Position numbers and translations under genes: made by a program. The notes beneath the pieces were generated by a model. It made no database searches. It saw only the letters and a program-made list of their open reading frames with translations, and had not been told where the DNA came from. A DNA stretch of 64,000 bases from Shigella phage vB_SsoM_JK08. The first letter of the stretch is position 1, and every line of letters starts with the position of its first letter. Positions 5,219 to 41,958 of the stretch are shown here, piece by piece. The stretch is from sequence record LR877332. One strand, given 5' to 3'.

Positions 5219-5219
5219 T

Positions 5220-5295: not shown

Positions 5296-5300
5296 AAAAC

Positions 5301-5390: not shown

Positions 5391-5392
5391 AG

Positions 5393-5466: not shown

Positions 5467-5476
5467 TAAATTAAAT

Positions 5477-5550
<74 letters not shown>

Positions 5551-5555
5551 AAATT

Positions 5556-5642
5556 TGGTGCGAGAAGTGGGACTCGAACCCACAAGGAAATCATTCCGCA
5601 GCATTTTAAGTGCTGTGCCTTTACCAATTTGGCCATTCTCGC
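5556..5642 (-). tRNA. tRNA-Leu (anticodon TAA), long variable arm
   Basis: Acceptor GCGAGAA/TTCTCGC, anticodon stem CAGCA/TGCTG with loop CTTAAAA, T-loop GTTCGAGT; one nt from tRNA-Gln. Confidence 0.85.
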
Positions 5643-5643
5643 G

Positions 5644-5716
5644 CTGGGAATAAAGGACTCGAACCTTTGCATCCTGGAATCAAAATCCAGTGCCTTACCA
5701 ACTTGGCTAATTCCCA
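5644..5716 (-). tRNA. tRNA-Gln (anticodon TTG), CCA not encoded
   Basis: Acceptor TGGGAAT/ATTCCCA, anticodon stem CTGGA/TCCAG with loop TTTTGAT, T-stem AAAGG/CCTTT. Confidence 0.85.
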
Positions 5717-6687: not shown

Positions 6688-6706
6688 TTTATTCTCCTCA
6701 GTAGTA

Positions 6707-6744
6707 GATAGGGTAATAGTATCACTACCCTATCTAAAAGTAAA
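6707..6744 (-). promoter_or_regulatory. promoter-early stem-loop (PeSL) cassette
   Basis: Minus strand TTTACT -35, 17 nt spacer, TACTAT -10 inside perfect inverted repeat GATAGGGTA...TACCCTATC. Confidence 0.55.
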
Positions 6745-6745
6745 C

Positions 6746-6979
6746 TTATTTTTTACGAAAAATTGATTTATTTTCTGCTGCCCATTTTTCAATAACTGCA
6801 GCAGGACCAGTAACAACAATTTTATCACCGTAATCTTCTGCGGCGAGTTGACCGAAATTATCTAATGCATCACGAAGAACTCCATGAGGCATTTCACCCA
6901 TTTTATCTTTCTTGCCAGTGTAAATAAACTCAACTTTTACATCAGCAGTTTCAGCAATAAATTCTTGGTAAGTTTTCAT
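6746..6979 (-). CDS. internal-protein-like capsid-targeted protein (ipI-locus cassette)
   Basis: Start chosen at MKTYQEFIAE (ATG 6977-6979), identical to the T4 capsid-targeting sequence; the track ORF starts 4 codons earlier at 6991. Confidence 0.55.
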   Translation of the reverse strand: MKTYQEFIAETADVKVEFIYTGKKDKMGEMPHGVLRDALDNFGQLAAEDYGDKIVVTGPAAVIEKWAAENKSIFRKK

Positions 6980-7005
6980 TTTGATTTCCATTTGGTTTTG
7001 TTTTG

Positions 7006-7042
7006 ATAGGGTAATAGTATCACAACTAAAACCCTATGTAAA
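7006..7042 (-). promoter_or_regulatory. promoter-early stem-loop (PeSL) cassette
   Basis: TTTACA, 17 nt spacer, TACTAT with inverted repeat TAGGGT...ACCCTA; adjoining 30 nt block GTAAACAACTTTGTGAAATTATTTTAAATC repeated at 7367-7396. Confidence 0.55.
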
Positions 7043-7055
7043 CAACTTTGTGAAA

Positions 7056-7313
7056 TTATTTTAAATCTTCTAATCGTTTCTTCATCTTAGAACCATTTTT
7101 AGCAATTTCTCCTGCATCGGAGCATAATGCTAAAAGTGCTTTAACTTTAGTTTGGTCTCCTTTAAAAGATGAAGGATCGACCGCAGCAGCAAGTTCTTTA
7201 ATACGAGAGAAAAGACGCTCAGCTTCAGCTAAAGCCATTCCAAGCTTTACTTCCATACCGTGGGAAGATTCGGTGATAGTAGTTTTTGTAGCAAACTCTT
7301 TGAAAGTTTTCAT
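7056..7313 (-). CDS. internal-protein-like protein at the ipI position
   Basis: 85 aa, N-terminus MKTFKEFATK resembles the capsid-targeting sequence; sits next to 57B where T4 has ipI. Confidence 0.55.
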   Translation of the reverse strand: MKTFKEFATKTTITESSHGMEVKLGMALAEAERLFSRIKELAAAVDPSSFKGDQTKVKALLALCSDAGEIAKNGSKMKKRLEDLK

Positions 7314-7335
7314 TTTTATTTTCCTAATTAATTTT

Positions 7336-7373
7336 GATGAGGTAATAGTATCACTACCTCATCAGTATGTAAA
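7336..7373 (-). promoter_or_regulatory. promoter-early stem-loop (PeSL) cassette
   Basis: TTTACA, 17 nt spacer, TACTAT inside inverted repeat GATGAGGTA...TACCTCATC, immediately after 57B stop. Confidence 0.55.
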
Positions 7374-7386
7374 CAACTTTGTGAAA

Positions 7387-8071
<685 letters not shown>

Positions 8072-8846: not shown

Positions 8847-9377
8847 TTAAACTTCCGCTATAATTTTTCCATCTTTTTCTACTTGAAAATACGTATAAGG
8901 AATCGTTGCTGTACATACTAAAGCCGGGTCTGAATCTTCTGTGTAGCTAAATTCTACTTCAGATAGGTCAGAAACCCAAGGCTTATAAAAATTTATTGAC
9001 ATCACGATTTCAGTTTTGCTATTATCTAAAATGTAAAGCGTAATGTATTCAGGACCTGTTTTTTGGGCAGTATTTTCACCTGTAAGATAGTTGCTAGTTC
9101 CTAGCATCCATTCATACATTCCTATCCATGACTTAAGTTCTTCATCAACTATAAATCTCACGATGAGTGGATCGTACTCAAATGTAGCACCTGGACGTTG
9201 TGCTCGGCCCAGTCCAAACGGCCCAGTCACGGTATCAGTAACAGGTATTCTAATTCCTGGAATAGGAACTGACTGAGCATTTAAAGTAAAAGCAGATGTA
9301 GTATTACTATGTGGTATTGATACTACAAAGTTAGTTGTATTTGCTTGGTTAAAAATTTGTTGCAGTGCTTGCGACAT
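8847..9377 (-). CDS. 3: gp3 tail tube terminator / sheath stabiliser
   Basis: Start moved to ATG 9375-9377 (GAGGA ribosome-binding site), giving 176 aa as in T4 gp3; the track ORF extends to a TTG at 9458. Confidence 0.8.
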   Translation of the reverse strand: MSQALQQIFNQANTTNFVVSIPHSNTTSAFTLNAQSVPIPGIRIPVTDTVTGPFGLGRAQRPGATFEYDPLIVRFIVDEELKSWIGMYEWMLGTSNYLTGENTAQKTGPEYITLYILDNSKTEIVMSINFYKPWVSDLSEVEFSYTEDSDPALVCTATIPYTYFQVEKDGKIIAEV

Positions 9378-9483
9378 ATATTCCTCATAATGCTTTATAA
9401 CTGTTGGTGGTATAATGGGTCTAAGTCCCTTCCATTCAATTCCATTTAGAACAAACAACAGAAAAGAATGGAAGATAATAGAA

Positions 9484-10308
9484 TTAGATATTTGACCAGA
9501 CTTTGTTTGCAGAGAAACGTTTTCCTTTTGAAACGAACTGCTGAAGTGGCATTAACACAACGTTCGCCCAGTCTTTCGGGGCGATTTCAACAAGGCTACC
9601 CATAATATTACCAGGTATATATGCCTTAATCATTTGGTCTGCACCCCTAAATCCTTTCACTTGACTCCAATCAATTTTTAATTTCGTTTTATTAGTAATA
9701 GTAGGTGTATTTGCATATTGCTTTAAAAGCTCTTCTAGAAACTGTTGACGAGCTTTAGGTGGAATATAGTGCAAGTTCAATCCGTACATTAAATTATGCT
9801 TACCTAAACCAAGGTAAATTATCAAAGGAAATTTATCCCAGTAAGGAAGAGTTTCCTTGTGTTTAGCATCATAAGCAAAAGCATATATTCGTCCCGGCTG
9901 CGGGCGAACAACTTTATGTCCTTTTACTTGCTTAATAGTTTCAGCAAACCACTTTCTGGTTTTATTATTAATTGCTGCGCCTTCATTACGAATTTTATCG
10001 CGCAATGTTTGTCTGAATGAATTTATCATAAGCAGTTGTCTTTCTTGCTTATTGAGTTTATTCATTGGTTTTGATTCAAGCTTTTGAATCTTTTCAGCCG
10101 TTTTAATTCCTGAAGCATATTTTGACATTGCTGAAGTAAACGTAGAGTATTTGATTCCTCTTTCTTCAGCAAATTGCTTTCCTGTCATTCCTTTTGCTTT
10201 GGCCTTTTTATATTCAAGACCTATCTGAATCCATTTCTTTTCGTTTAATGATTGCTTAACCTTTGGAACTTGGGGAGTGCTTTCATTAATTATTTGAAAA
10301 ATAGCCAT
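9484..10308 (-). CDS. 2: gp2 DNA end protector
   Basis: 274 aa, length and order match T4 gp2. Confidence 0.85.
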
Positions 10309-13940: not shown

Positions 13941-15923
13941 ATGGCAAATACCCCTGTAAATTATCAATTAACAAGAACAGCAAATGCTATTCCCGAGATA
14001 TTCGTCGGGGGTACGTTTGCTGAAATAAAACAAAACCTCATTGAATGGCTTAATGGCCAAAATGAATTTTTGGATTATGATTTTGAAGGCTCAAGATTAA
14101 ACGTTCTGTGTGACCTTTTAGCTTATAATACATTGTACATTCAACAGTTTGGTAATGCTGCTGTGTATGAAAGCTTTATGCGTACTGCTAACTTACGAAG
14201 TTCAGTTGTTCAAGCTGCACAAGATAACGGATATTTACCTACTTCAAAATCCGCTGCGCAGACCGAAATTATGTTAACATGCACCGACGCATTGAATAGG
14301 AATTACATTACTATTCCTCGCGGAACTCGCTTTTTAGCATATGCAAAAGATACTTCTGTTAATCCATATAACTTCGTTTCTACCGAAGACGTTATTGCTA
14401 TTCGTGATAAAAATAACCAATATTTTCCGCGTTTAAAATTGGCCCAGGGACGTATAGTAAGAACTGAAATCATTTATGATAAATTAACACCTATTATCAT
14501 TTATGATAAAAATATTGATAGAAACCAGGTTAAATTATACGTTGATGGAGCAGAATGGATTAACTGGACAAGAAAGTCAATGGTTCATGCTGGTTCTACA
14601 TCGACAATTTACTACATGCGTGAAACTATTGATGGAAATACTGAATTCTATTTTGGTGAAGGTGAAATTTCTGTTAATGCTTCTGAAGGAGCTTTGACCG
14701 CTAATTATATCGGAGGTCTTAAACCTACTCAGAACTCTACGATTGTTATTGAGTACATCAGTACTAATGGTGCTGACGCGAACGGAGCAGTCGGATTTTC
14801 ATACGCAGATACATTAACAAATATAACTGTCATCAATATTAATGAAAATCCAAACGATGACCCAGATTTTGTTGGGGCAGATGGCGGCGGTGATCCAGAA
14901 GATATTGAGCGTATCCGCGAATTGGGTACTATTAAACGCGAAACCCAGCAACGCTGCGTAACTGCGACTGACTATGATACATTCGTTTCAGAGAGATTTG
15001 GTTCTATTATTCAAGCAGTTCAGACTTTCACTGATTCTACTAAACCTGGTTATGCATTTATTGCTGCTAAACCTAAATCAGGTCTGTATTTAACTACTGT
15101 ACAGCGTGAAGATATTAAAAATTATCTCAAAGACTATAATTTAGCTCCTATTACGCCATCAATTATTTCTCCTAATTATCTTTTTATTAAGACTAATTTA
15201 AAAGTCACATATGCTTTAAATAAGCTGCAAGAATCCGAACAGTGGCTCGAAGGTCAAATAATTGATAAAATTGATCGTTATTATACCGAAGACGTAGAAA
15301 TTTTTAATTCATCTTTCGCTAAATCTAAGATGTTGACATATGTAGATGATGCAGATCATTCTATCATTGGCTCATCAGCGACAATTCAAATTGTTCGTGA
15401 AGTACAAAACTTCTATAAAACGCCTGAAGCAGGTATTAAATACAATAATCAAATAAAAGATTGTTCTATGGAATCTAATACGTTTTCATTTAATTCTGGA
15501 CGAAAGGTTGTAAATCCTGATACTGGTTTAGAAGAAGATGTATTATATGACGTTCGCATAGTATCAACAGACCGAGATTCTAAAGGAATTGGTAAAGTTA
15601 TTATTGGTCCATTTGCTTCTGGCGATGTTACAGAAAATGAAAACATTCAGCCATATACAGGCAACGATTTTAACAAATTAGCAAATTCTAATGGACGCGA
15701 CAAATACTATGTTATCGGTGAAATAAATTATCCAGCTGATGTGATTTATTGGAATATCGCTAAAATTAATTTAACATCTGAAAAATTTGAAGTTCAGACC
15801 ATCGAATTATATTCTGACCCAACCGATGATGTTATCTTTACTCGCGACGGTTCACTGATTGTATTTGAAAATGACTTACGTCCACAATACTTAACTATCG
15901 ATTTGGAGCCTATATCACAATGA
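13941..15923 (+). CDS. 6: gp6 baseplate wedge protein
   Basis: 660 aa, matches T4 gp6 length and order. Confidence 0.9.
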   Translation: MANTPVNYQLTRTANAIPEIFVGGTFAEIKQNLIEWLNGQNEFLDYDFEGSRLNVLCDLLAYNTLYIQQFGNAAVYESFMRTANLRSSVVQAAQDNGYLPTSKSAAQTEIMLTCTDALNRNYITIPRGTRFLAYAKDTSVNPYNFVSTEDVIAIRDKNNQYFPRLKLAQGRIVRTEIIYDKLTPIIIYDKNIDRNQVKLYVDGAEWINWTRKSMVHAGSTSTIYYMRETIDGNTEFYFGEGEISVNASEGALTANYIGGLKPTQNSTIVIEYISTNGADANGAVGFSYADTLTNITVININENPNDDPDFVGADGGGDPEDIERIRELGTIKRETQQRCVTATDYDTFVSERFGSIIQAVQTFTDSTKPGYAFIAAKPKSGLYLTTVQREDIKNYLKDYNLAPITPSIISPNYLFIKTNLKVTYALNKLQESEQWLEGQIIDKIDRYYTEDVEIFNSSFAKSKMLTYVDDADHSIIGSSATIQIVREVQNFYKTPEAGIKYNNQIKDCSMESNTFSFNSGRKVVNPDTGLEEDVLYDVRIVSTDRDSKGIGKVIIGPFASGDVTENENIQPYTGNDFNKLANSNGRDKYYVIGEINYPADVIYWNIAKINLTSEKFEVQTIELYSDPTDDVIFTRDGSLIVFENDLRPQYLTIDLEPISQ

Positions 15924-18900
15924 CAGTAAAAGCACCTTCAGTCACTAGTCTCAGAATTTCCAAGTTATCCGCAAATCAGGTGCAAGTACGCTGGGATGAC
16001 GTTGGTGCTAATTTCTACTATTTTGTAGAAATCGCTGAGACAAAAACGAACTCGGGGGAAAATCTCCCGAGTAATCAATACAGATGGATTAACTTAGGAT
16101 ATACTGCAAATAACAGCTTCTTTTTTGATGATGCTGACCCATTGACATCATACATTATCAGAGTAGCTACAGCTGCGCAAGATTTTGAGCAGTCTGATTG
16201 GATTTATACCGAAGAGTTTGAAACTTTTGCTACAAATGCTTATACATTTCAAAACATGATTGAAATGCAATTAGCCAATAAATTCATTCAGGAAAAATTT
16301 ACTCTTAATAATTCTGATTATGTTAATTTTAACAATGACACTATAATGGCTGCATTGATGAATGAATCATTTCAATTCAGCCCATCGTATGTTGATGTTT
16401 CATCAATAAGTAATTTTATTATTGGTGAAAATGAGTATCATGAAATACAAGGTTCTATTCAGCAAGTATGTAAGGATATTAACCGAGTTTATTTGATGGA
16501 ATCAGAAGGAATTCTATATCTTTTTGAGCGCTATCAACCTGTAGTTAAAGTATCCAATGATAAAGGACAAACCTGGAAAGCCGTAAAGCTCTTCAATGAC
16601 CGTGTAGGATATCCTTTATCTAAGACAGTATATTACCAATCTGCGAACACAACATACGTTCTAGGATACGACAAGATTTTCTATGGCCGTAAATCGACTG
16701 ACGTTAGATGGTCAGCAGATGATGTCAGATTCAGTTCGCAGGATATAACATTTGCTAAACTTGGCGACCAGTTACATTTAGGATTTGATGTAGAAATCTT
16801 TGGTACTTATGCGACTTTACCAGCGAATGTATATCGTATAGCTGAAGCCATTACTTGTACGGATGATTATATCTATGTTGTTGCCAGAGATAAAGTTAGA
16901 TATATAAAAACGAGCAATGCACCTATAGATTCTGATCCATTATCTCCAACATATTCGGAAAGGCTATTTGAATCTGATACAATGACTATAACTGGAAATC
17001 CTAAAGCAGTATGCTATAAAATGGATTCTATTGGTGATAAAGTTTTTGCTCTTATTATCGGTGAAGTTGAAACATTAAATGCTAATCCTAGAACGTCAAA
17101 AATAATTGATTCTACTGATAAAGGAATATATGTTTTAAATCATGACACAAAAACGTGGAAAAGAGTTTTTGGCAACACTGAAGAAGAAAGAAGACGTATT
17201 CAACCTGGGTATGCGAATATGTCAACTGATGGTAAATTAGTTTCTCTATCTTCGAGTAATTTTAAATTTTTAAATGATAACGTTGTTAATGACCCTGAAA
17301 CTGTAGCAAAATATCAGTTAATCGGTGCCGTTAAATATGAATTTCCTCGTGAATGGTTAGCTGATAAGCATTATCATATGATGGCATTTATAGCAGATGA
17401 AAAGTCTGATTGGGAAACTTTTACGCCTCAGCCAATGAAATACTACGCAGAACCGTTCTTTAATTGGTCTAAAAAATCTAACACACGCTGTTGGATAAAC
17501 AACTCTAATAGAGCTGTAGTAGTTTATGCTGATTTAAAATACACTAAAGTTATAGAAAATATTCCGGAAACATCACCAGATAGATTAGTTCATGAATACT
17601 GGGATGATGGTGATTGTACGATAGTAATGCCAAATGTTAAATTCACGGGATTTAAAAAATATGCGTCTGGGATGCTTTTTTATAAATCTTCTGGTGAAAT
17701 AATTTCTTATTATGATTTTAACTATCGTGTGAGAGATACAGTAGAAATTATTTGGAAGCCGACTGGAGTATTTTTAAAAGCATTTTTACAAAACCAAGAG
17801 CATGAGACTCCTTGGTCGCCAGAAGAAGAGCATGGATTAGCTGACCCTGATTTAAGACCATTAATTGGCACAATGATGCCTGATTCTTATTTGTTGCAGG
17901 ATTCGAATTTTGAGGCATTTTGTGAAGCATATATTCAATATCTTTCTGACGGATACGGAACTCAGTATAATAATTTACGAAATTTAATTCGTAATCAGTA
18001 TCCACGAGAAGAGCATGCGTGGGAATATTTGTGGTCAGAGATATATAAAAGAAACATTTATTTAAATGCTGACAAACGTGATGCTGTTGCAAGATTTTTT
18101 GAATCACGTAGTTATGATTTTTATTCTACTAAAGGAATTGAAGCATCATACAAATTTCTTTTTAAAGTTCTTTATAATGAAGAAGTTGAAATTGAAATTG
18201 AATCTGGGGCTGGTACTGAATATGACATAATCGTTCAATCTGATTCTTTGACTGAAGATTTAGTAGGACAAACGATTTATACAGCCACAGGAAGATGTAA
18301 TGTTACTTATATAGAAAGAAGTTATTCTAATGGTAAATTGCAATGGACCGTAACTATTCATAATCTTTTGGGAAGATTAATTGCTGGTCAAGAAGTTAAA
18401 GCAGAAAGACTCCCTAGTTTTGAAGGCGAAATTATTCGTGGAGTTAAAGGAAAGGATTTGCTTCAAAACAATATAGACTATATTAATAGAAGTAGATCAT
18501 ACTATGTAATGAAAATTAAATCCAATTTACCTTCTTCCCGCTGGAAATCTGACGTTATTCGTTTTGTTCATCCAGTAGGATTTGGATTTATAGCAATTAC
18601 CCTTTTAACGATGTTTATTAATGTTGGTTTAACTCTTAAACATACAGAGACTATAATTAATAAATACAAAAACTATAAATGGGATTCTGGATTGCCTACT
18701 GAATATGCTGATAGAGTAGCTAAATTAACTCCAACCGGTGAAATTGAGTATGATTCAGTAACAGGCGAAGCAATTTATGAGCCTGGCCCAATGGCTGGTG
18801 TAGAATATCCTCTTCCTGATGACTATAATGCTGAAAATAATAATTCAATATTTCAAGGTCAATTGCCGTCTGAACGACGTAAATTAATGAGTCCCCTATT

Positions 18901-19018
18901 TGATGCTTCTGGAACAACATTTGCGCAATTTAGGGATTTAGTTAATAAACGTCTAAAAGATAATATAGGAAATCCAAGAGACCCTGAAAATCCAACACAG
19001 GTTAAAATAGATGAATGA
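15920..19018 (+). CDS. 7: gp7 baseplate wedge initiator
   Basis: 1032 aa, matches T4 gp7 length and order; overlaps gp6 stop. Confidence 0.9.
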   Translation: MTVKAPSVTSLRISKLSANQVQVRWDDVGANFYYFVEIAETKTNSGENLPSNQYRWINLGYTANNSFFFDDADPLTSYIIRVATAAQDFEQSDWIYTEEFETFATNAYTFQNMIEMQLANKFIQEKFTLNNSDYVNFNNDTIMAALMNESFQFSPSYVDVSSISNFIIGENEYHEIQGSIQQVCKDINRVYLMESEGILYLFERYQPVVKVSNDKGQTWKAVKLFNDRVGYPLSKTVYYQSANTTYVLGYDKIFYGRKSTDVRWSADDVRFSSQDITFAKLGDQLHLGFDVEIFGTYATLPANVYRIAEAITCTDDYIYVVARDKVRYIKTSNAPIDSDPLSPTYSERLFESDTMTITGNPKAVCYKMDSIGDKVFALIIGEVETLNANPRTSKIIDSTDKGIYVLNHDTKTWKRVFGNTEEERRRIQPGYANMSTDGKLVSLSSSNFKFLNDNVVNDPETVAKYQLIGAVKYEFPREWLADKHYHMMAFIADEKSDWETFTPQPMKYYAEPFFNWSKKSNTRCWINNSNRAVVVYADLKYTKVIENIPETSPDRLVHEYWDDGDCTIVMPNVKFTGFKKYASGMLFYKSSGEIISYYDFNYRVRDTVEIIWKPTGVFLKAFLQNQEHETPWSPEEEHGLADPDLRPLIGTMMPDSYLLQDSNFEAFCEAYIQYLSDGYGTQYNNLRNLIRNQYPREEHAWEYLWSEIYKRNIYLNADKRDAVARFFESRSYDFYSTKGIEASYKFLFKVLYNEEVEIEIESGAGTEYDIIVQSDSLTEDLVGQTIYTATGRCNVTYIERSYSNGKLQWTVTIHNLLGRLIAGQEVKAERLPSFEGEIIRGVKGKDLLQNNIDYINRSRSYYVMKIKSNLPSSRWKSDVIRFVHPVGFGFIAITLLTMFINVGLTLKHTETIINKYKNYKWDSGLPTEYADRVAKLTPTGEIEYDSVTGEAIYEPGPMAGVEYPLPDDYNAENNNSIFQGQLPSERRKLMSPLFDASGTTFAQFRDLVNKRLKDNIGNPRDPENPTQVKIDE

Positions 19019-20015
19019 TTCAAGTGTTATCTATCGTGCGATAGTTACTTCAAAATTTAGAACAGAAAAAATGTTGAATTTTTATAATTCAATTGGAAGT
19101 GGTCCGGATAAAAACACTATCTTTATCACATTTGGAAGATCAGAACCGTGGTCATCAAATGAAAATGAGGTGGGCTTTGCCCCACCTTATCCAACCGATT
19201 CTGTATTAGGCGTAACTGACATGTGGACGCATATGATGGGAACAGTAAAGGTTCTTCCATCAATGCTTGACGCAGTTATTCCTCGTCGAGATTGGGGAGA
19301 TACTAGATATCCGGATCCATACACATTTAGAATTAACGATATTGTAGTGTGTAACTCAGCTCCTTACAACGCTACTGAATCAGGCGCAGGCTGGTTAGTA
19401 TATCGTTGTTTAGATGTTCCTGATACTGGAATGTGTTCAATCGCATCTTTAACTGATAAGGATGAATGCCTTAAATTAGGCGGAAAATGGACACCTTCTG
19501 TTAGGTCAATGACTCCTCCTGAAGGTCGAGGAGATGCTGAAGGAACAATTGAACCTGGGGACGGGTATGTATGGGAATATCTTTTTGAGATTCCACCCGA
19601 TGTATCTATAAATAGATGCACGAATGAATATATTGTGGTTCCTTGGCCTGAGGAATTAAAAGAAGACCCGACTAGATGGGGATATGAAGATAATCTCACT
19701 TGGCAGCAAGATGATTTTGGATTAATTTACCGGGTTAAGGCAAATACTATCCGTTTTAAAGCATATTTAGATTCAGTTTACTTTCCTGATGCTGCATTGC
19801 CAGGAAATAAAGGATTTAGACAAATATCAATAATCACAAATCCTCTTGAAGCTAAAGCTCATCCAAATGACCCAAATGTTAAAGCTGAAAAGGATTATTA
19901 TGATCCAGAAGATTTAATGAGGCATTCGGGCGAAATGATTTATATGGAAAATAGGCCACCTATTATCATGGCAATGGATCAGACAGAAGAAATCAATATT
20001 CTGTTTACATTTTAA
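19011..20015 (+). CDS. 8: gp8 baseplate wedge protein
   Basis: 334 aa, matches T4 gp8. Confidence 0.9.
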   Translation: MNDSSVIYRAIVTSKFRTEKMLNFYNSIGSGPDKNTIFITFGRSEPWSSNENEVGFAPPYPTDSVLGVTDMWTHMMGTVKVLPSMLDAVIPRRDWGDTRYPDPYTFRINDIVVCNSAPYNATESGAGWLVYRCLDVPDTGMCSIASLTDKDECLKLGGKWTPSVRSMTPPEGRGDAEGTIEPGDGYVWEYLFEIPPDVSINRCTNEYIVVPWPEELKEDPTRWGYEDNLTWQQDDFGLIYRVKANTIRFKAYLDSVYFPDAALPGNKGFRQISIITNPLEAKAHPNDPNVKAEKDYYDPEDLMRHSGEMIYMENRPPIIMAMDQTEEINILFTF

Positions 20016-20020
20016 ATTAA

Positions 20021-20046
20021 GGGAGCCCATGGGCTCCCTTTTTCTT
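20021..20046 (+). terminator. rho-independent terminator after gene 8
   Basis: Hairpin GGGAGCCCATGGGCTCCC followed by TTTTTCTTT. Confidence 0.6.
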
Positions 20047-20054
20047 TATAAATA
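20047..20054 (+). promoter_or_regulatory. late promoter TATAAATA for gene 9
   Basis: Exact TATAAATA about 26 nt upstream of ATG 20079. Confidence 0.6.
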
Positions 20055-20078
20055 CTATAAACTCATAAGGAAACCGCT

Positions 20079-20945
20079 ATGTTCATTCAAGAACCAAAGA
20101 AATTGATTGATACCGGCGAAATTGGTAACGCTTCTACTGGTGATATCTTATTCGACGGTGGTAATAAAATTAATAGTGATTTTAACGCAATTTATAATGC
20201 GTTTGGCGATCAGCGTAAAATGGCAGTAGCAAATGGCACTGGAGCAGATGGTCAAATTATCCATGCTACTGGATATTATCAAAAGCACTCTATCGCGGAG
20301 TACGCAACTCCAGTGAAAGTTGGCACTAGACATGATATTGATACCTCTACTGTAGGTGTTAAAGTTATTATTGAAAGAGGAGAACTTGGCGATTGTGTTG
20401 AATTCATTAACTCTAATGGATCAATATCAGTTACTAATCCTTTAACGATTCAGGCTATTGATTCAATTAAAGGCGTTTCAGGTAATTTAGTAGTAACTAG
20501 CCCATATAGTAAAGTAACTTTACGCTGTATTTCATCTGATAATTCTACATCGGTTTGGAATTATTCTATTGAAAGTATGTTTGGACAAAAGGAATCACCA
20601 GCTGAAGGTACATGGAATATTTCTACATCCGGATCAGTTGATATTCCACTATTTCATCGCACTGAATACAATATGGCTAAATTGCTAGTTACGTGCCAAT
20701 CAGTAGATGGAAGAAAAATTAAAACAGCAGAAATAAATATTCTTGTGGATACTGTTAATTCAGAAGTTATTTCTTCTGAGTATGCTGTCATGAGAGTTGG
20801 AAATGAAACAGAAGAAGACGAGATTGCTAATATTGCATTTAGTATTAAAACCAACTATGTAACGGCGACTATAAGTTCTTCTACCGTTGGCATGAGAGCA
20901 GCAGTTAAAGTTATCGCTACGCAGAAAATCGGGGTGGCTCAATAA
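20079..20945 (+). CDS. 9: gp9 baseplate wedge / long tail fibre socket
   Basis: 288 aa, matches T4 gp9. Confidence 0.9.
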   Translation: MFIQEPKKLIDTGEIGNASTGDILFDGGNKINSDFNAIYNAFGDQRKMAVANGTGADGQIIHATGYYQKHSIAEYATPVKVGTRHDIDTSTVGVKVIIERGELGDCVEFINSNGSISVTNPLTIQAIDSIKGVSGNLVVTSPYSKVTLRCISSDNSTSVWNYSIESMFGQKESPAEGTWNISTSGSVDIPLFHRTEYNMAKLLVTCQSVDGRKIKTAEINILVDTVNSEVISSEYAVMRVGNETEEDEIANIAFSIKTNYVTATISSSTVGMRAAVKVIATQKIGVAQ

Positions 20946-22750
20946 TGAAACAAAATATTAATATCGGTAATGTTGTTGATGATGGTACCGGTGACTACCT
21001 GCGTAAAGGTGGTATAAAAATAAATGAAAACTTTGATGAACTTTATTATGAACTTGGCGATGGAGATGTTCCATATTCAGCCGGTGCCTGGAAAACTTAT
21101 AATGCTTCATCTGGTCAAACATTAAAAGCTAAGTGGGGAAAATCATACGCTATTAATACCTCTTCTGGAAGAGTAACTTTACAACTTCCTAAAGGAACTG
21201 TTAATGATTATAATAAAGTAATTAGAGCTAGGGATGTATTTGCAACATGGAACATTAATCCAGTTACTTTAGTAGCTGCTTCTGGAGATACAATTAAAGG
21301 GTCGTCATCATCGGTTGAAATTAATACTCAATTTAGTGATTTAGAGCTCGTTTATTGCGCTCCAGGACGTTGGGAGTATGTCAAAAACAAACAAATTGAC
21401 AAAATTATTAGTTCAGATATTAGTAATGTAGCACGTAAAGAATTTTTAGTCGAAGTTCAAGGACAAACGGACTTTTTAGATGTTTTCCGCGGAACTAGCT
21501 ATAATGTTAATAACATCCGAGTAAAACACCGTGGTAATGAATTATATTACGGCGATGTATTTAGTGAAAACAGTGACTTTGGCTCTCCTGGGGAAAATGA
21601 AGGAGAATTGATTCCTCTTGATGGATTTAATATTAGGTTAAGACAGCCTTGTAATATTGGTGACACTGTTCAAATTGAAACATTTATGGATGGTATATCA
21701 CAATGGAGAAGTTCATATACAAGACGCCAAATAAAAGTATTAGATTCAAAATTAACGTCAAAAACTTCTTTAGAAGGAAGTATTTACGTTACTGATTTAT
21801 CAACAATGAAATCAATTCCATTCTCTGCATTTGGATTAATTCCTGGAGAACCTATTAATCCTAATTCTCTTGAAGTTCGTTTTAATGGAATTTTACAACA
21901 ACAAGCTGGAACAGCAGGATATCCTCTGTTTTTGTGTGAAGGTGCTAACTCAGATACGCAAGCAGGATGTATATCTCTTGGTGGTGAATGGAAAGAATCG
22001 AACACAGATTATTCTATAGAATATGAAGATGGAAAACCTGTCAGTCTTTTATTTGATAGAAAATTTGAATCAGGTGATATAATCGTTATAACATGGTTTA
22101 ATAATGATTTAGGAACTCTTTTAGAAAAAGATGACATTATTGAATTAACTGATGACCGTTATGTTAGTAAAGGATCATCTACTGAAGTTACTGGGGATGT
22201 AGCCTTAACAGATTTTGATAAAATCGGTTGGCCAAATGTTGAAAAAGTTGATTCTTATACTAGAACGTATAATTCAATATCATCTATTTTCGATAGCATT
22301 TATCCCGTAGGTTCAATTTATGAAAATGCTATAAACCCAAATAATCCGGTGACTTATATGGGGTTTGGTTCGTGGAAATTATTTGGTAAAGGACAAGTTT
22401 TAGTAGGATGGAATGATGATGTTACGGATCCAAACTTTGCTTTAAACAATAATGATTTAGATTCTAGCGGAAATCCTTCACATACTGCCGGTGGAACAGT
22501 TGGAACAACATCGGTGACACTTGAGAACGCAAATCTTCCTGCGACTAAAACTGATGAAAAAGTTTTAATTGAAGATGAAAACGGATCAGTTATTATTGGA
22601 GGTTGTCAATATGACCCAGACGAAACTGGTCCTATATATACAAAATATCGTGAAGACTACGCAACAACAAACTCTTCACATACTCCTCCTACTAATATTA
22701 GTAATATTCAACCGTCTATTACTGTATACCGTTGGATAAGGATTGCATAA
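20945..22750 (+). CDS. 10: gp10 baseplate wedge protein
   Basis: 601 aa (T4 about 602), ATGA-type overlaps with genes 9 and 11. Confidence 0.9.
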
Positions 22751-23409
22751 TGAGTTTACTTAATAATAAAGCGGGAGTTATTTCCCGCTTAGCAGATTTT
22801 CTTGGTTTTAGAACTAAGAAAAATGATATTTCGGTTATGAATAATCAGCCAGTAGGCGCTGTAACAATTTCACAAATAGCAAAAGGTTTTTATGACCCGA
22901 ATGTAGAATCTGCTATCAATGATGTTAGAAATATGGCAGAGCAACCGGTTGGAGCTGTATTAGTTAATATAAGCGGCGTATCTCCTACTGGCGTGCAACA
23001 AACCGACTATTGGTCATTTGAAGGAACTGTTACTGATACTTCAGTCAAATCAGGTGACCCAGTTATTGTTAACATGTTTGGTATTCCAGTTAAAGCTACT
23101 AATGGAATGACTTCAATTGAATTTACTAGTGCCGTTAGAATAGCTCTACAGGAAATGGTTGTAAAATTTATTGCAATTGATTCATTTGAAGACCATCCTA
23201 CCATAGGAAATAAAATACAAGTTAAGTATTTAGATAACCAAGAACATATCTTAGAACAATACTCTGATAAAGGAATTACTTTCAAACAGGAAATAATTTC
23301 TCCTTCTAAACCTGGGTATGGAACTTGGCAATTATTAGGTGCGCAAACTGTTACGCTAGATAGTCACACACAACCTACAGTATTTTATTATTTTGAGAGA
23401 ATAGCATGA
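22750..23409 (+). CDS. 11: gp11 baseplate wedge / short tail fibre attachment
   Basis: Start at ATG 22750 overlapping gp10 stop gives 219 aa as in T4; the track ORF starts 6 codons earlier. Confidence 0.85.
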
Positions 23410-24129
23410 GTAACAATACATATCAGCACGTATCAAATGAATCAAAATATGTTAAATTCGATCCTACTGGATCGAATTTTCCTGGCACTGTTACGACAGT
23501 ACAGTCTGCATTCCCGAATGTAGAATCTGCTATCAATGATGTTAGAAATATGGCAGAGCAACCGGTTGGAGCTGTATTAGTTAATATAAGCGGCGTATCT
23601 CCTACTGGCGTGCAACAAACCGACTATTGGTCATTTGAAGGAACTGTTACTGATACTTCAGTCAAATCAGGTGACCCAGTTATTGTTAACATGTTTGGTA
23701 TTCCAGTTAAAGCTACTAATGGAATGACTTCAATTGAATTTACTAGTGCCGTTAGAATAGCTCTACAGGAAATGGTTGTAAAATTTATTGCAATTGATTC
23801 ATTTGAAGACCATCCTACCATAGGAAATAAAATACAAGTTAAGTATTTAGATAACCAAGAACATATCTTAGAACAATACTCTGATAAAGGAATTACTTTC
23901 AAACAGGAAATAATTTCTCCTTCTAAACCTGGGTATGGAACTTGGCAATTATTAGGTGCGCAAACTGTTACGCTAGATAGTCACACACAACCTACAGTAT
24001 TTTATTATTTTGAGAGAATAGCATGAGTAACAATACATATCAGCACGTATCAAATGAATCAAAATATGTTAAATTCGATCCTACTGGATCGAATTTTCCT
24101 GGCACTGTTACGACAGTACAGTCTGCATT
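22896..24129 (+). repeat. perfect direct tandem duplication, 2 x 617 bp
   Basis: Copy 22896-23512 is repeated at 23513-24129 with no mismatch seen by eye; the track ORFs 23007..23285 and 23624..23902 are identical and offset by exactly 617. Confidence 0.85.
23406..24026 (+). CDS. chimeric ORF: N-terminal 35-36 residues of gp12 fused in frame to C-terminal about 170 residues of gp11
   Basis: 206 aa; starts at the gene 12 ATG inside copy 1 and crosses the duplication junction (...TTVQSA|FPNVESAIN...) into the gene 11 3' half; ATGA-coupled on both sides. Confidence 0.5.
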
Positions 24130-25573
24130 ATCAAAAATAAGTAATATCGGCGTAAATGGTATTCCTGATGCAACTATGGAAGTTAAAGGAATAGCAATGA
24201 TTGCATCAGAGCAAGAGGTTTTAGATGGAACAAATAATTCTAAAATCGTTACACCAGCTACATTAGCAACAAGATTATTGTATCCAAATGCTACTGAAAC
24301 TAAATATGGTTTAACGCGCTATTCAACAAATGAAGAAACATTAGAAGGCTCAGATAATAATTCATCAATAACGCCGCAAAAACTGAAATACCATACTGAT
24401 GATGTGTTCCGAAATAGATATTCATCTGAGTCATCAAACGGGGTTATTAAAATATCATCTACGCCTGCGGCTTTGGCTGGTGTTGATGATACTACGGCGA
24501 TGACTCCGCTAAAAACCCAAAAACTCGCAATAAAATTAATTTCACAAATAGCTCCTTCCGAAGATACTGCATCAGAATCTGTGAGAGGTGTGGTTCAATT
24601 ATCAACTGTTGCGCAAACTCGTCAAGGAACTCTCCGCGAAGGATATGCAATTTCTCCGTATACCTTTATGAATTCTGTTGCAACACAAGAATATAAGGGT
24701 GTTATACGTTTAGGAACACAATCGGAAATTAACAGTAATTTAGGAGATGTTGCAGTAACAGGTGAAACACTAAATGGTCGAGGAGCTACTGGTTCTATGC
24801 GTGGAGTAGTTAAATTAACGACGCAAGCCGGTATTGCCCCTGAAGGTGATAGTTCTGGAGCATTAGCGTGGAACGCAGATGTAATTAATACGCGTGGTGG
24901 ACAAACTATTAATGGTTCTTTAAATTTAGACCATCTTACAGCAAATGGAATTTGGTCACGCGGTGGAATGTGGAAAAATGGCGATCAACCTGTTGCCACT
25001 GAAAGATATGCGTCCGAACGAGTTCCGGTTGGAACTATTATGATGTTTGCGGGTGATTCAGCACCTCCAGGTTGGATTATGTGTCATGGTGGAACCGTGT
25101 CAGGTGACCAATTTCCTGATTATAGAAACGTAGTTGGAACAAGATTTGGTGGCGATTGGAATAATCCTGGCGTTCCTGATATGCGGGGTCTTTTCGTCAG
25201 AGGAGCTGGCACAGGCGGTCATATTTTAAATCAACGAGGACAAGATGGTTATGGAAAGGATAGACTTGGCGTAGGATGTGACGGAATGCATGTTGGTGGT
25301 GTTCAAGCACAACAAATGTCATACCATAAACACGCCGGTGGTTGGGGGGAACATAACAGAAGTGAAGGCCCATTTGGCGCGTCTGTTTATCAAGGATATC
25401 TTGGAACTAGAAAATATGCCGACTGGGATAATGCTTCATACTTCACTAATGATGGATTTGAATTAGGCGGACCGAGAGATGCCCTTGGTACACTTAATCG
25501 TGAAGGATTAATTGGTTATGAAACTAGACCATGGAATATATCATTAAACTATATTATTAAAGTTCATTACTAA
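24023..25573 (+). CDS. 12: gp12 short tail fibre
   Basis: 516 aa (T4 527); Gly-rich C-terminal receptor-binding region. Confidence 0.9.
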
Positions 25574-25582
25574 GGATTACAA

Positions 25583-27040
25583 ATGATTGAATTAAAAGAT
25601 TTACCTTTTGTTGATAGCGTTCCTGATGAAGGTCAGGAACGTATTTCATGGATTAAAAATGGTGAAGAAATACTAGGAGCTAGCACTAAGTATGGAAACG
25701 ATGGATCAATGAATAGACCAATTGTTTCCGTGTTTAAAAATGTTGAGGTTCTTGACGAAAATATAGGAATTCTTAAAACTGCCATTGAAACATCGCAGAA
25801 AGATATTAAAACAATTCAAGGAGTTTTAGATGTATCAGGAGATATAGAAGCACTATCGCAGATCAGTGTTAATAAAAATGACATATCAAATTTAAAGACA
25901 CTTACTAATGAACACACTGATATATTAACTGGAACTAATAATACAGTTGACAAAATTATTGCTGATATAGGTCCATTTAATGATGAAGAAAACTCTGTTT
26001 ATAGAACAATTAGAAATGATTTATTGTGGATTAAACAAGAACTAGGGCAATATTCTGGCCAAGACATTAACGGTCTTCCTGTTGTTGGTAATGCTAGCAC
26101 AGGAATGAAACATAGAATAATAACAAATAGTACATTATTATCTTCACAAGGCATTCGTTTAAGTGAATTAGAAAATAAATTTACTGAATCTGACGTAGGA
26201 TCATTGACGGTTGAAGTTGGTAAATTACGCGATGAACTTGGTAATAAACCAGTAGATTTTGGACCAAATATTTATAATAGATTAAACACTATAGATGATA
26301 AACAAACTTTAATAAATTCTGATATAGCAGAAATTAAATCTTCTATTGGATACCCAGAAAATGTTTCTATAATAACAGAAATTAATAATAACAAAAGTAG
26401 CATTGAATCTATTAATAATGAATTAAATCAGAGTGAAGGTGTTAAACAGCGCTTAACGGCTATTGAAACTTCTATAGGTTCAGATGATATTCCTTCTAGT
26501 ATTAAAGGAAAAATTAAAAATCACACAACTTCTATTGAGTCTTTAAACGGAATTGTTGGTGAAAACACTTCGTCTGGTTTAAGAGCGAATGTTTCGTGGT
26601 TAAATCAAATTGTTGGAACTGACTCCAGCGGAGGACAACCGTCTCCTTCTGGATCTCTATTAAATAAAGTTTCAGTGCTTGAAGGAGAAGTTTCAGTTTT
26701 AAACAATAATGTTCAAAATATACAAGTTGAAATAGGAAATAATAGAACAGGAATTAAAGGTCAAGTTATTGAACTTACTTCACTTATAAATGGAAATAAT
26801 CCTGACGGATCAACTGTTGAAGAACGAGGATTAACTAATTCTATAAAAACGAATGAAACTAACATTGCGGCAGTCACGCATGAAGTAAATACAGCTAAAG
26901 ACAATATATCCTCTTTACAGAGCAGCGTTCAAGCTCTACAAGAAGCAGGTTATATTCCTGAAGCTCCAAAAGATGGCCAAGCTTACGTTCGTAAAGACGG
27001 CGAATGGGTACTACTTTCTACCTTTTTATCACCAGCATAA
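25583..27040 (+). CDS. wac: fibritin (whisker antigen control)
   Basis: 485 aa coiled coil ending in foldon [27 protein letters not shown]. Confidence 0.95.
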
Positions 27041-27071
27041 CATGGGGCCGCAAGGCCCCAAAGGATTTTAA

Positions 27072-28773
<1,702 letters not shown>

Positions 28774-28814
28774 TAAATATTATAAACTAATTAAAGCCCA
28801 GATTAGGAGAAATC

Positions 28815-31952
<3,138 letters not shown>

Positions 31953-31983
31953 ATATATTAAAGCATATTAAAGAGGATTAAAA

Positions 31984-33963
31984 ATGACTTTATTATCTCC
32001 GGGCATTGAGCTCAAAGAAACTACGGTTCAAAGCACCGTGGTTAATAACTCTACTGGTACAGCAGCTTTGGCCGGTAAATTCCAGTGGGGTCCTGCTTTT
32101 CAGATTAAACAGGTTACAAACGAAGTAGATTTAGTTAATACTTTTGGTCAACCTACAGCTGAAACTGCTGACTATTTTATGTCTGCAATGAATTTCTTAC
32201 AATATGGAAATGATTTGCGAGTTGTGCGCGCTGTCGATAGAGATACCGCTAAAAACTCATCTCCGATTGCTGGTAATATTGAATACACAATTTCTACCCC
32301 AGGTAGTAACTATGCGGTTGGAGATAAAATCACGGTCAAATATGTTTCAGATGATATTGAAACTGAAGGTAAAATCACCGAAGTAGATGCTGATGGAAAA
32401 ATCAAGAAAATTAGTATTCCTACTGCAAAAATTATCGCTAAAGCGAAAGAAGTCGGTGAATATCCAACACTAGGTTCTAACTGGACTGCGGAAATTTCTT
32501 CGTCTTCCTCTGGTTTAGCTGCAGTAATAACTCTTGGAAAAATTATTACTGATTCTGGTATTTTATTAGCTGAAATTGAAAATGCTGAAGCTGCTATAAC
32601 AGCTGTTGATTTTCAGGAAAATCTTAAAAAATATGGAATTCCAGGAGTAGTAGCTCTTTATCCAGGCGAATTAGGCGATAAAATCGAAATCGAAATCGTA
32701 TCTAAAGCTGATTACGCGAAAGGCGCTTCTGCATTACTCCCAATTTATCCAGGTGGTGGTACTCGTGCATCTACTGCCAAGGCAGTGTTTGGATATGGAC
32801 CGCAAACTGATTCACAGTACGCTATTATAGTTCGTCGCAATGATGCTATTGTTCAAAGCGTTGTTCTTTCAACTAAGCGTGGTGAAAAAGATATTTACGA
32901 TAGTAACATCTATATCGATGACTTTTTCGCAAAAGGCGGCTCAGAATATATTTTTGCAACTGCACAAAACTGGCCAGAAGGCTTCTCTGGAATTTTAACT
33001 CTGTCTGGTGGATTATCATCAAATGCTGAAGTAACAGCAGGAGATTTAATGGAAGCTTGGGACTTCTTTGCTGACCGTGAATCTGTTGATGTTCAACTGT
33101 TTATTGCGGGTTCTTGTGCCGGTGAATCTTTAGAAACAGCATCTACTGTCCAAAAACACGTCGTTTCAATTGGGGATGCTCGCCAAGATTGCTTAGTATT
33201 GTGCTCTCCTCCGCGTGAAACTGTAGTTGGAATTCCTGTAACTCGTGCAGTAGATAATTTAGTTAACTGGAGAACTGCGGCAGGTTCATACACTGATAAT
33301 AACTTTAATATCAGTTCAACCTATGCAGCAATCGACGGCAACTACAAATATCAGTATGACAAATATAATGATGTGAATCGTTGGGTTCCATTAGCAGCTG
33401 ATATTGCCGGTTTATGCGCGAAAACTGATAACGTTTCTCAGACTTGGATGTCTCCAGCTGGTTATAATCGTGGTCAGATTCTTAACGTTATTAAACTTGC
33501 TATTGAAACTCGCCAAGCTCAGCGCGACCGTTTATATCAAGAAGCTATCAACCCAGTAACTGGTACAGGTGGTGATGGTTACGTATTGTATGGTGATAAA
33601 ACAGCTACTTCTGTTCCTTCTCCATTTGATCGTATTAACGTTCGTCGTCTGTTTAATATGTTGAAAACGAATATCGGACGTAGTTCAAAATATCGTTTGT
33701 TCGAATTAAACAACGCGTTTACTCGTTCATCATTCCGCACAGAAACTGCCCAATACTTACAGGGAATTAAAGCTCTCGGTGGAATTTATGAATATCGTGT
33801 AGTTTGCGATACAACAAATAACACTCCGTCAGTAATTGATAGAAATGAGTTTGTTGCAACATTCTACATTCAACCGGCTCGTAGTATAAATTATATCCAA
33901 CTTAATTTCGTCGCAACTGCTACTGGTGCAGATTTTGATGAGTTAACTGGTCTTGCAGGTTAA
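31984..33963 (+). CDS. 18: gp18 contractile tail sheath
   Basis: 659 aa, matches T4 gp18. Confidence 0.95.
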   Translation: MTLLSPGIELKETTVQSTVVNNSTGTAALAGKFQWGPAFQIKQVTNEVDLVNTFGQPTAETADYFMSAMNFLQYGNDLRVVRAVDRDTAKNSSPIAGNIEYTISTPGSNYAVGDKITVKYVSDDIETEGKITEVDADGKIKKISIPTAKIIAKAKEVGEYPTLGSNWTAEISSSSSGLAAVITLGKIITDSGILLAEIENAEAAITAVDFQENLKKYGIPGVVALYPGELGDKIEIEIVSKADYAKGASALLPIYPGGGTRASTAKAVFGYGPQTDSQYAIIVRRNDAIVQSVVLSTKRGEKDIYDSNIYIDDFFAKGGSEYIFATAQNWPEGFSGILTLSGGLSSNAEVTAGDLMEAWDFFADRESVDVQLFIAGSCAGESLETASTVQKHVVSIGDARQDCLVLCSPPRETVVGIPVTRAVDNLVNWRTAAGSYTDNNFNISSTYAAIDGNYKYQYDKYNDVNRWVPLAADIAGLCAKTDNVSQTWMSPAGYNRGQILNVIKLAIETRQAQRDRLYQEAINPVTGTGGDGYVLYGDKTATSVPSPFDRINVRRLFNMLKTNIGRSSKYRLFELNNAFTRSSFRTETAQYLQGIKALGGIYEYRVVCDTTNNTPSVIDRNEFVATFYIQPARSINYIQLNFVATATGADFDELTGLAG

Positions 33964-34002
33964 TTGATTATGGGGCTTCGGCCCCTATTCTCGAGGAAAC
34001 AA

Positions 34003-34608
34003 GTGATTATTTCTAAGTTTGTTACAATAAAACCAAGAAATCATTCAAAAATGTGGTCGACAATTCTGGGATATAAAGTATCATATCATGATACAGTATC
34101 TGTTCCAATAGAATTAATGCCAAAGAATAGTAATAAAATAGTTGACGCTAAATGTGATTTGTGTGGTATTAAATTTAGTAGAAGCATTCAGCTTTTAAAT
34201 AGAACACCCACGCATGCATGTAGAAAATGTAGCATTAAACAAGTTGCTATTAAAAATTCGGAAGTTCAATCTGGAATAAGTAGACCATGGCAAAGAGGTG
34301 ATAAACATCCTCGATGGACTGGTAAAAGAAAAGAGTTTGCATTATATGCTAGTAGAGTTCATTCTATAACTAAGTCAGCTAAAATAAGAAAAATCTGGTC
34401 AAAATGGCCAAATGCTGATAAAATAGGAGTGTGTGGTGTAGAAGGTGCTTACCAACTTGATCATAAGGTATCTATCAAATATGGATTTGATAATTTAATT
34501 CCGCCGGAAATTATAGCAAGCGTAAAAAATTTAGAAATAATCACTTGGGAATCTAACCGAGAAAAGTCAAAAAGAAATAGCGTAGATCTTTGGGATTTAC
34601 TAGAATGA
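34003..34608 (+). CDS. HNH homing endonuclease (mob-like)
   Basis: Zn-ribbon CDLCG...CRKC and HNH core YQLDHKVSIKYGFDNL...WESNREK; start uncertain (GTG 34003 with GAGGA ribosome-binding site, or ATG 34051); the track start 33964 is a TTG overlapping a hairpin. Confidence 0.65.
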   Translation: MIISKFVTIKPRNHSKMWSTILGYKVSYHDTVSVPIELMPKNSNKIVDAKCDLCGIKFSRSIQLLNRTPTHACRKCSIKQVAIKNSEVQSGISRPWQRGDKHPRWTGKRKEFALYASRVHSITKSAKIRKIWSKWPNADKIGVCGVEGAYQLDHKVSIKYGFDNLIPPEIIASVKNLEIITWESNREKSKRNSVDLWDLLE

Positions 34609-40674: not shown

Positions 40675-41958
40675 ATGGCTAAAATCAACGAACTTCTGCG
40701 CGAATCAACCACAACGAATAGCAACTCAATCGGTCGCCCAAATCTCGTTGCTTTGACTCGCGCTACCACTAAATTAATATATTCTGACATTGTAGCAACG
40801 CAAAGAACTAATCAACCTGTTGCTGCTTTTTATGGTATCAAATACCTTAACCCGGATAACGAATTTACATTTAAAACTGGTGCTACTTACGCTGGCGAAG
40901 CTGGGTATGTAGACCGAGAACAAATCACAGAATTAACAGAAGAGTCTAAATTAACTCTCAATAAAGGCGATTTATTCAAATATAATAATATCGTTTATAA
41001 AGTATTAGAAGATACACCATTTGCTGATATTGAAGAAAGCGATTTAGAATTAGCTCTTCAGATTGCAATCGTTCTTTTAAAGGTTCGTTTATTTTCTGAT
41101 GCTGCAGTAACAAGCAAATTTGAAAACTCTGATAGCGAAATTGCGGATGCTAGATTCCAGATTAATAAATGGCAAACCGCAGTTAAATCTCGTAAACTTA
41201 AAACTGGCATCACAGTTGAATTAGCACAAGATTTAGAAGCAAACGGATTCGATGCTCCTAATTTCTTGGAAGATTTGCTTGCAACTGAAATGGCGGATGA
41301 AATCAATAAAGATATTCTGCAGTCTTTGATTACAGTATCAAAACGCTATAAAGTTACAGGAATTACTGATACTGGATTCATTGATTTGAGTTATGCATCT
41401 GCACCTGAAGCTGGTCGTTCATTATACCGAATGGTGTGTGAAATGGTTTCACATATCCAGAAAGAATCAACTTATACAGCAACGTTCTGTGTTGCTTCAG
41501 CTCGTGCCGCTGCGATTCTTGCTGCATCAGGTTGGTTAAAACATAAACCAGAAGATGACAAATATCTTTCACAAAATGCCTACGGGTTCTTAGCTAATGG
41601 TTTACCGCTTTATTGCGATACCAACAGTCCATTAGATTATGTAATCGTTGGCGTAGTAGAAAATATTGGTGAAAAAGAAATTGTTGGATCAATTTTCTAT
41701 GCTCCGTATACAGAAGGTCTTGACTTAGATGACCCTGAACATGTAGGTGCATTTAAAGTTGTAGTTGATCCAGAAAGTTTGCAGCCATCTATCGGTTTAT
41801 TAGTTAGATATGCTTTATCTGCAAATCCTTACACTGTAGCAAAAGATGAAAAAGAAGCAAGAGTAATTGATGGTGGAGATATGGATAAAATGGCGGGTCG
41901 TTCAGATTTGTCTGTTTTATTAGGTGTTAAGCTACCAAAAATTATCATTGATGAATAA
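40675..41958 (+). CDS. 24: gp24 capsid vertex protein
   Basis: 427 aa, matches T4 gp24. Confidence 0.9.
   Translation: MAKINELLRESTTTNSNSIGRPNLVALTRATTKLIYSDIVATQRTNQPVAAFYGIKYLNPDNEFTFKTGATYAGEAGYVDREQITELTEESKLTLNKGDLFKYNNIVYKVLEDTPFADIEESDLELALQIAIVLLKVRLFSDAAVTSKFENSDSEIADARFQINKWQTAVKSRKLKTGITVELAQDLEANGFDAPNFLEDLLATEMADEINKDILQSLITVSKRYKVTGITDTGFIDLSYASAPEAGRSLYRMVCEMVSHIQKESTYTATFCVASARAAAILAASGWLKHKPEDDKYLSQNAYGFLANGLPLYCDTNSPLDYVIVGVVENIGEKEIVGSIFYAPYTEGLDLDDPEHVGAFKVVVDPESLQPSIGLLVRYALSANPYTVAKDEKEARVIDGGDMDKMAGRSDLSVLLGVKLPKIIIDE

Follow-up and report, generated by a model that had tools for sequence, protein, structure and literature searches.

Genes 10 to 12, the 617-bp repeat and the chimeric frame

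The window, that is, the whole stretch of 64,000 nt from Shigella phage vB_SsoM_JK08 (record LR877332) that was analysed here, contains a Tequatrovirus late gene block for baseplate and tail fibre proteins. At the border of genes 11 and 12 in this block, a segment of 617 bp is present twice in tandem, and an additional reading frame lies between the two genes. The features of the region are the following.

20047..20054, + strand: T4 late-promoter motif TATAAATA, the nearest on this strand upstream of the repeat, located upstream of gene 9
20945..22750, + strand: gene 10, baseplate wedge, 601 aa, intact and upstream of the repeat; the 601-aa equivalent in relatives has the Pfam domains T4_gp9_10_N and Gp10
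22750..23409, + strand: gene 11, baseplate wedge / tail pin, 219 aa, intact; full-length Pfam GP11 match, E 2.8e-75
22896..23512, + strand: repeat copy 1, comprising 514 nt from the 3' end of gene 11 and 107 nt from a gene 12 start; identical to copy 2
23406..24026, + strand: chimeric ORF, 206 aa, 22.7 kDa, the gp12 start fused to the gp11 C-terminal part
23498..23527, + strand: novel joint from unit end to unit start, AGTACAGTCTGCATT/CCCGAATGTAGAATC, no microhomology
23513..24129, + strand: repeat copy 2, the gene 11 3' part of the chimeric ORF, followed by the beginning of the intact gene 12
24023..25573, + strand: gene 12, short tail fibre, 516 aa, intact; Pfam gp12-short_mid, Collar and S_tail_recep_bd
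25583-27040: wac, 485 aa

Phages PYps55T and UTI-E4 have exactly the gp11 protein of the window, and its gp12 protein recurs without a difference in Proteus phage Isf-Pm2 and in one Logan contig. The sequence-only reading had considered both genes (22750-23409, 219 aa; 24023-25573, 516 aa) to be intact, and their identities are confirmed by Pfam.

Positions 22896-23512 and 23513-24129 are identical at 617/617 positions (0 mismatches in direct comparison and in a repeat search, which gave a spacing of 617), and the perfect head-to-tail unit described in the sequence-only reading is thus upheld by alignment. The copies abut directly, with a spacer of 0. Because identity extends by 0 bases beyond the unit on either side, the unit is exactly 617 nt long, its boundaries are exact and the joint between the copies, ...GTCTGCATT/CCCGAATG... 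(with other flank lengths, ...ACAGTCTGCATT/CCCGAATGTAGA...), has 0 bp of microhomology; the in-register flanks of the joint match by eye at 2/11 and 5/11 positions. Both ends of the unit fall inside codons (gene 11 codon 49 and gene 12 codon 36) and show no tie to gene or motif boundaries. The part of gene 11 included in the unit, first described as its 3' two-thirds, actually amounts to 514/660 nt (78%). Chance does not account for a repeat of this length: exact direct repeats within 5 kb reach at most 34 nt in 444 kb of related T4-like DNA, versus 617 nt in the window.

The unit also contains a perfect palindrome in gene 12 codons 17-25 (23454..23479, copied at 24071-24096), AAATTCGATCC-TACT-GGATCGAATTT, with an 11-bp stem and a 4-nt loop, situated 33 nt before the right end (breakpoint) of the unit. 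Variation among relatives is confined here to 23465-23469, which comprises the 4-nt loop and, at 23469, the only stem position touched, the first base of the 3' arm; this distribution hints at a conserved DNA or RNA hairpin.

The chimeric ORF is composed of gp12 residues M1-A35, a new Phe36 (codon TT/C, the slash marking the joint) and gp11 residues P50-A219. The fusion is in frame because 107 mod 3 = 2 and position 22896 is a third codon position. The frame as computed, with ATGA start/stop overlaps on both sides (23406-23409 and 24023-24026), agrees with the in-frame 206-aa gp12N-gp11C product first proposed. The 25 nt upstream of the chimeric ORF are the same as those upstream of gene 12, and the ATGA stop/start overlap is common to both. 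Within the chimera, residues 34-206 match Pfam GP11, covering profile positions 58-252 of 252 only, and matches are also found to gp11 in PDB 1EL6 and to residues 1-56 of gp12 in PDB 5IV5 (the first roughly 55 residues of T4 gp12), while the PHROG families matched are baseplate wedge subunit and tail collar fiber. Since gp11 residues 1-49 at the N-terminus are missing, the chimera falls outside full-length GP11 (PF08677) and, judged by its sequence, is not a full gp11. Leiman et al. reportedly described residues 1-49 in 2000 as most of the N-terminal helical trimerisation region of gp11. An exact look-up of the chimeric protein in an index of 153 billion gene positions found it not on record.

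The late-promoter motif TATAAATA is enriched in the window (23 found versus 9.7 expected). A search for promoters within the 617-bp unit gave no TATAAATA, and sigma-70-like matches were at the level of shuffled controls; an own transcript for the chimeric ORF from a promoter inside the unit was rejected on these grounds. As the unit is without the late-promoter motif and the nearest one is at 20047, the chimeric ORF would share the late polycistronic mRNA of genes 9-12.

In T4, gp12 docks by its N-terminus on the N-terminal domain of gp10, whose middle domain is clamped by the gp11 fingers (PMC3004832). Because the chimera joins the docking end of gp12 to the fingers of gp11, competition with gp11 and gp12 for gp10 would be a more likely effect than help in assembly. 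The suggestion that an extra gp11 C-terminal domain could alter the stoichiometry of the short tail fibres found nothing to support it, and competition for gp10 appears likelier.

Single copy in relatives and the mosaic backbone

A 2201-nt query over the repeat matched 501 phage records in INPHARED. In 40/40 Tequatrovirus records among the matches listed (40 of 501), the aligned pieces span 1584 nt, which is 2201 minus 617, and these 40 listed records therefore have one copy. The same arrangement was found in 24/24 loci recovered by exact look-ups of the gp11, gp12, wac and gp13 proteins in NCBI, ENA and Logan: a 219-aa gp11 is followed directly by gene 12, whose 516-aa product is called in 23 of the 24 loci, while in the other one (L007) the gene 12 span is uncalled but of single-copy length. 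The single-copy junction for which the sequence-only reading had looked to related T4-like genomes is thus found throughout the 40 listed records and the 24 loci.

The joint itself was sought in several collections. A 44-mer centred on it had no megablast match in INPHARED, and a 28-mer across it had 0 matches in IMG/VR, JGI metagenome contigs and GTDB genome contigs, as well as 0 matches in 28 fetched loci. A two-anchor pattern for the gene 11/12 haplotype of the window gave 0 matches in IMG/VR and metagenomes, and by exact protein look-up the gp18 of the window is not on record. A literature search for a described gene 11/12 duplication, or for a Tequatrovirus tandem duplication, returned nothing relevant.

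With one copy of the repeat removed, the window aligns with Yersinia phage PYps35T (MT515754) with 0 gaps over 29 kb. Mismatches are 0 over most of the 64 kb, the exceptions being about 11 patches, with a divergence of 1-9%, and three insertion/replacement segments. The segments referred to below are these.

About 9078-9606 and 15462-16117 (window coordinates): patches
23588-33340, 41434-42428, 43231-46077, 48027-48950, 50274-54455 and 57583-57588 (coordinates with one repeat copy removed): patches
33964-34608, + strand: 214-aa ORF between the genes for gp18 (tail sheath) and gp19 (tail tube), present in UTI-E4 as 'gp19.1'

To the left of the gene 11/12 border, the window has 0 mismatches to PYps35T at 16980-23400 and one at 23401, which is private to PYps35T. 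The largest patch covers genes 12 to 18 over ~10 kb, from de-duplicated position 23588 (window 24205) to 33340, at about 3% divergence. It directly adjoins an insertion of 643 nt (window 33964-34608), which both PYps35T and Isf-Pm2 lack and right after which identity resumes. The left end of this 10-kb block lies at the repeat and its right end exactly at the insertion of the 214-aa ORF. For the latter there is no Pfam match; it falls into phrog_5104 (function not assigned there) and has a weak match to a phrog homing endonuclease (E 8e-4).

Window positions 23314-26329 are identical to Isf-Pm2 and many other phages. The Isf-Pm2-type and PYps35T-type lineages differ at 11 sites in the unit (22897 to 23313), and both copies carry the PYps35T-type alleles; in the unit region, about one difference per 40 nt separates neighbouring lineages. 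Comparison of these sequences places a parental switch somewhere in 23314-23587, an interval of 274 nt which contains the right end of the unit (23512). Unequal crossover between the flanking lineages (PYps35T-type and Isf-Pm2-type) is ruled out by the same alleles in both copies at 11/11 diagnostic sites. Since both copies have the same left-parent alleles, the repeat arose in one molecule that was already mosaic, or was copied from it.

The closeness of a patch boundary to the repeat carries only a little weight, as it is expected by chance at roughly 0.1-0.17, considering about 22 patch boundaries in 63.4 kb and either of the two unit ends. Moreover, PYps55T has the sequence of the window from 22373 to 23793 apart from one SNP, and for this reason the switch at the gene 11/12 border may be older than the repeat and unrelated to it. 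The gene 11 allele is common to PYps35T, PYps55T and UTI-E4.

A simple mixture of two known phages was rejected, as no single second genome covers the patches that depart from PYps35T: Isf-Pm2 is identical only over 23314-26329, and UTI-E4 fits some patches only. For the 26.9-34 kb block the best database match is 99.3%, and the 10-kb block is itself mosaic. Overall, the pattern of patches looks like ordinary natural mosaicism of Tequatrovirus.

Several other features of the window were recorded. A SegE-like GIY-YIG homing endonuclease gene of 205 aa (45730-46347, + strand) is located between inh and uvsW and is absent from PYps35T and Isf-Pm2; the SNP-dense tracts on either side of it look like co-conversion. 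The Hoc-like head decoration gene (43572-44990, - strand, 472 aa) encodes several Ig/PKD-like domains, includes an old 288-nt tandem repeat at 44134-44709 with 78% identity, which amounts to one extra Ig-like domain, and is mostly unaligned to PYps35T at the megablast level. Ten tRNA genes (Arg, Asn, Tyr, Met, Thr, Ser, Pro, Gly, Leu, Gln) are clustered at 4889-5716 on the - strand; since UTI-E4 and Isf-Pm2 have an additional tRNA-His and an extra ORF in this cluster, tRNA content varies between close relatives. Two repeat families occur in the early and internal-protein gene region, at 6703-7402 and 3294-4575: one consists of three copies of a 71-nt unit, each with a short inverted repeat, and the other of three copies of a G+C-rich hairpin, AAAAAGCCCC..GGGGCT. 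Both families are probably repeated promoter or terminator modules.

Origin of the repeat

T4-like genomes are circularly permuted and terminally redundant, and their records are re-opened at a conventional start. The sequence-only reading held that a perfect duplicate is either very recent or an assembly artefact, which is the right dichotomy, and on balance we incline to the view that the repeat is a finishing or assembly artefact and not present in the phage DNA. The finishing history that we infer would be as follows. Where an assembler contig runs past 100% of a circularly permuted genome, its end bases would repeat its start bases exactly; re-opening of this contig at the conventional start, or joining of two overlapping contigs without trimming, would then leave an internal perfect head-to-tail duplication. 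By another route, a record with an untrimmed terminal overlap may have been treated as circular when the window was cut. The boundaries would be arbitrary, and the 206-aa chimeric ORF would be a by-product, in frame by a one-in-three chance. The Phage Annotation Guide lists contigs extended past 100% of the genome and the re-opening of T4-like records among the problems of such genomes (PMC8785237), and artificial end overlaps in assemblies have been described (PMC5923482).

The exact identity of the copies, their direct adjacency, the arbitrary boundaries and the lack of a repeat in related genomes are all as expected of an artefact. A blunt joint is expected 9/16 of the time under arbitrary boundaries. 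In addition, the repeat is unique, and its halves, with the same alleles, are copies of one molecule rather than the outcome of exchange between two phages. T4 recombination is very active, and a perfect 617-bp repeat is expected to be unstable. Illegitimate recombination in T4 is said, from the work of Singer & Westlye in 1988 and Wu & Black in 1991, to occur usually at short homologies. An artefact is also in keeping with the likely effect of the chimera, which, if expressed, looks more harmful than useful.

Other observations speak against an artefact. The length of 617 nt is unlike the k-mer-sized overlap left by SPAdes (55-127), and an overlap-type or long-read assembler, or manual joining, must be assumed. 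Base quality is high, with 0 gaps against PYps35T over 29 kb. The sparing of all genes together with an in-frame ORF that has the native ATGA coupling is what a viable real duplication would show, and in an artefact would have a chance of roughly 0.5 times 0.33; the right end of the unit lies within the 274-nt switch in similarity to PYps35T (chance roughly 0.1-0.17), which biological recombination explains better. The likelihood ratios on the two sides are small and largely offset one another, so the verdict is governed mainly by prior expectation, and the sequence alone does not tell an artefact from a real event. If the repeat is an artefact, it is a curation matter only: the record then exceeds the genome by 617 nt, and a 206-aa "baseplate wedge" gene that does not exist may spread in protein databases.

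A genuine and very recent duplication is somewhat doubtful in our view, yet a serious possibility. In its simplest form, which taken by itself we consider rather unlikely, it would be a spontaneous tandem duplication that arose very recently in the phage stock, independently of the mosaic boundary, through illegitimate joining or through template switching in replication between sister genomes, and was fixed by plaque purification. Genes 11 and 12 would be functional, and the chimera, made at about the level of gp12, would be neutral or mildly harmful; unless selected, the duplication would disappear within a few passages as the copies recombine with each other by homology. A recent event accords with the perfect identity of the copies. 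The essential genes are all spared, the new ORF reads in frame and is still coupled to gene 12 by the native ATGA, and the window is of high base quality and has no other anomalies. Tandem duplications are a classical class of mutation in T4, including rII duplications, Hp17 amplifications and gene 37 duplications, and an extra 617 nt fits easily in the terminal redundancy of the T4 headful; both facts count for a spontaneous event. It is made less credible by the joint without microhomology, by the absence of the duplication from the relatives and collections compared, by the rarity a priori of a neutral duplication at consensus level in a random isolate, and by the chimera, which would probably compete for gp10.

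The duplication might also be a scar of inter-phage recombination at the far (left) end of a conversion tract formed by the ~10-kb block of genes 12-18, an explanation that we regard as improbable. It supposes a double-strand break at the insertion of the homing-endonuclease-like 214-aa ORF and its repair by copying from a co-infecting phage, with the left end sealed by blunt, homology-independent end-joining instead of homologous resolution, which would leave a 617-bp overlap; the recipient would have supplied copy 1 and the donor copy 2, the two being identical through the same gene 11 allele. Such a course of events suits the ~3% divergent tract (de-duplicated 23588 to 33340), which adjoins the 643-nt insertion with identity back beyond it, and the blunt joint. 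The right end of the unit (23512) is inside the switch interval 23314-23587, but a boundary falls near a unit end by chance in roughly 10-17% of cases, and the sharing of 22373-23793 with PYps55T, bar one SNP, means that the switch may be older and unrelated. An identical donor and recipient are plausible, considering that PYps35T, PYps55T and UTI-E4 have the gene 11 allele in common; however, the 10-kb block is a mosaic in its own right, its closest match in the database being 99.3%. A second nuclease gene, the SegE-like one at 45730-46347, also lies between SNP-dense tracts, whereas the assignment of the 214-aa ORF as a nuclease is weak (no Pfam match; phrog homing endonuclease, E 8e-4). We know of no precedent for end-joining scars of this kind in T4, which counts against the scheme. 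If it is nevertheless true, the repeat would represent a previously undescribed type of scar in T4-like phages and a route to fusions of structural genes.

It is very improbable that the duplication is established and selected, with a chimera that works in short-tail-fibre or baseplate assembly and gene conversion keeping the copies identical: the ORF does read in frame, with the translation start region of gene 12 and the whole gp11 finger and C-terminal part retained, but none of the other genomes among hundreds of close relatives has the duplication, the 617 nt show 0 differences against about 1 site per 40 nt between neighbouring lineages, and the chimera is without gp11 residues 1-49.

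Comparison with known systems

Three known systems can be compared with the repeat. Co-conversion tracts of homing endonucleases, for example those of seg genes, resemble the window in that divergent tracts adjoin the SegE-like GIY-YIG gene and the 214-aa HNH-like ORF. The study 'Nuclease genes occupy boundaries of genetic exchange between bacteriophages' is reportedly an example of such marker co-conversion. However, co-conversion works through homology and does not duplicate sequence. A tract with a duplication at its far end would represent a new type of scar, and in the window the two are linked by position only.

With the class of untrimmed contig-end overlaps, the repeat shares its perfect identity, the head-to-tail adjacency, the arbitrary boundaries, the occurrence in one record only and the setting in a conventionally re-opened T4-like genome. 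It differs from this class in its length, 617 nt as compared with the 127 bp cited for SPAdes, and in that no gene is disrupted here, which may be due to chance.

The tandem duplications of T-even phages (the rII region, gene 17-18 in Hp17, and the host-range duplications of gene 37) resemble the repeat in the head-to-tail order, the novel joint, the intact flanking genes, the fusion ORF and the expected instability. These duplications were recovered under selection and, where sequenced, are usually joined at short homologies. The window accordingly presents the direct repeat, the single novel joint and the intact flanks of the T-even class, and lacks the short-homology joint, which is typical of it and not obligatory. 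The further differences are that here no selection is known and there is no second observation. If the duplication is real, it would offer a natural experiment on competition in baseplate assembly and on the origin of new structural genes, as its expressed fusion would unite the part of the short tail fibre that docks on gp10, its N-terminus, with the tail pin's finger and foot domains. It would then be a tandem duplication caught in the act in a natural T4-like phage, and a fresh example of the already-known T-even tandem duplications rather than a new class.
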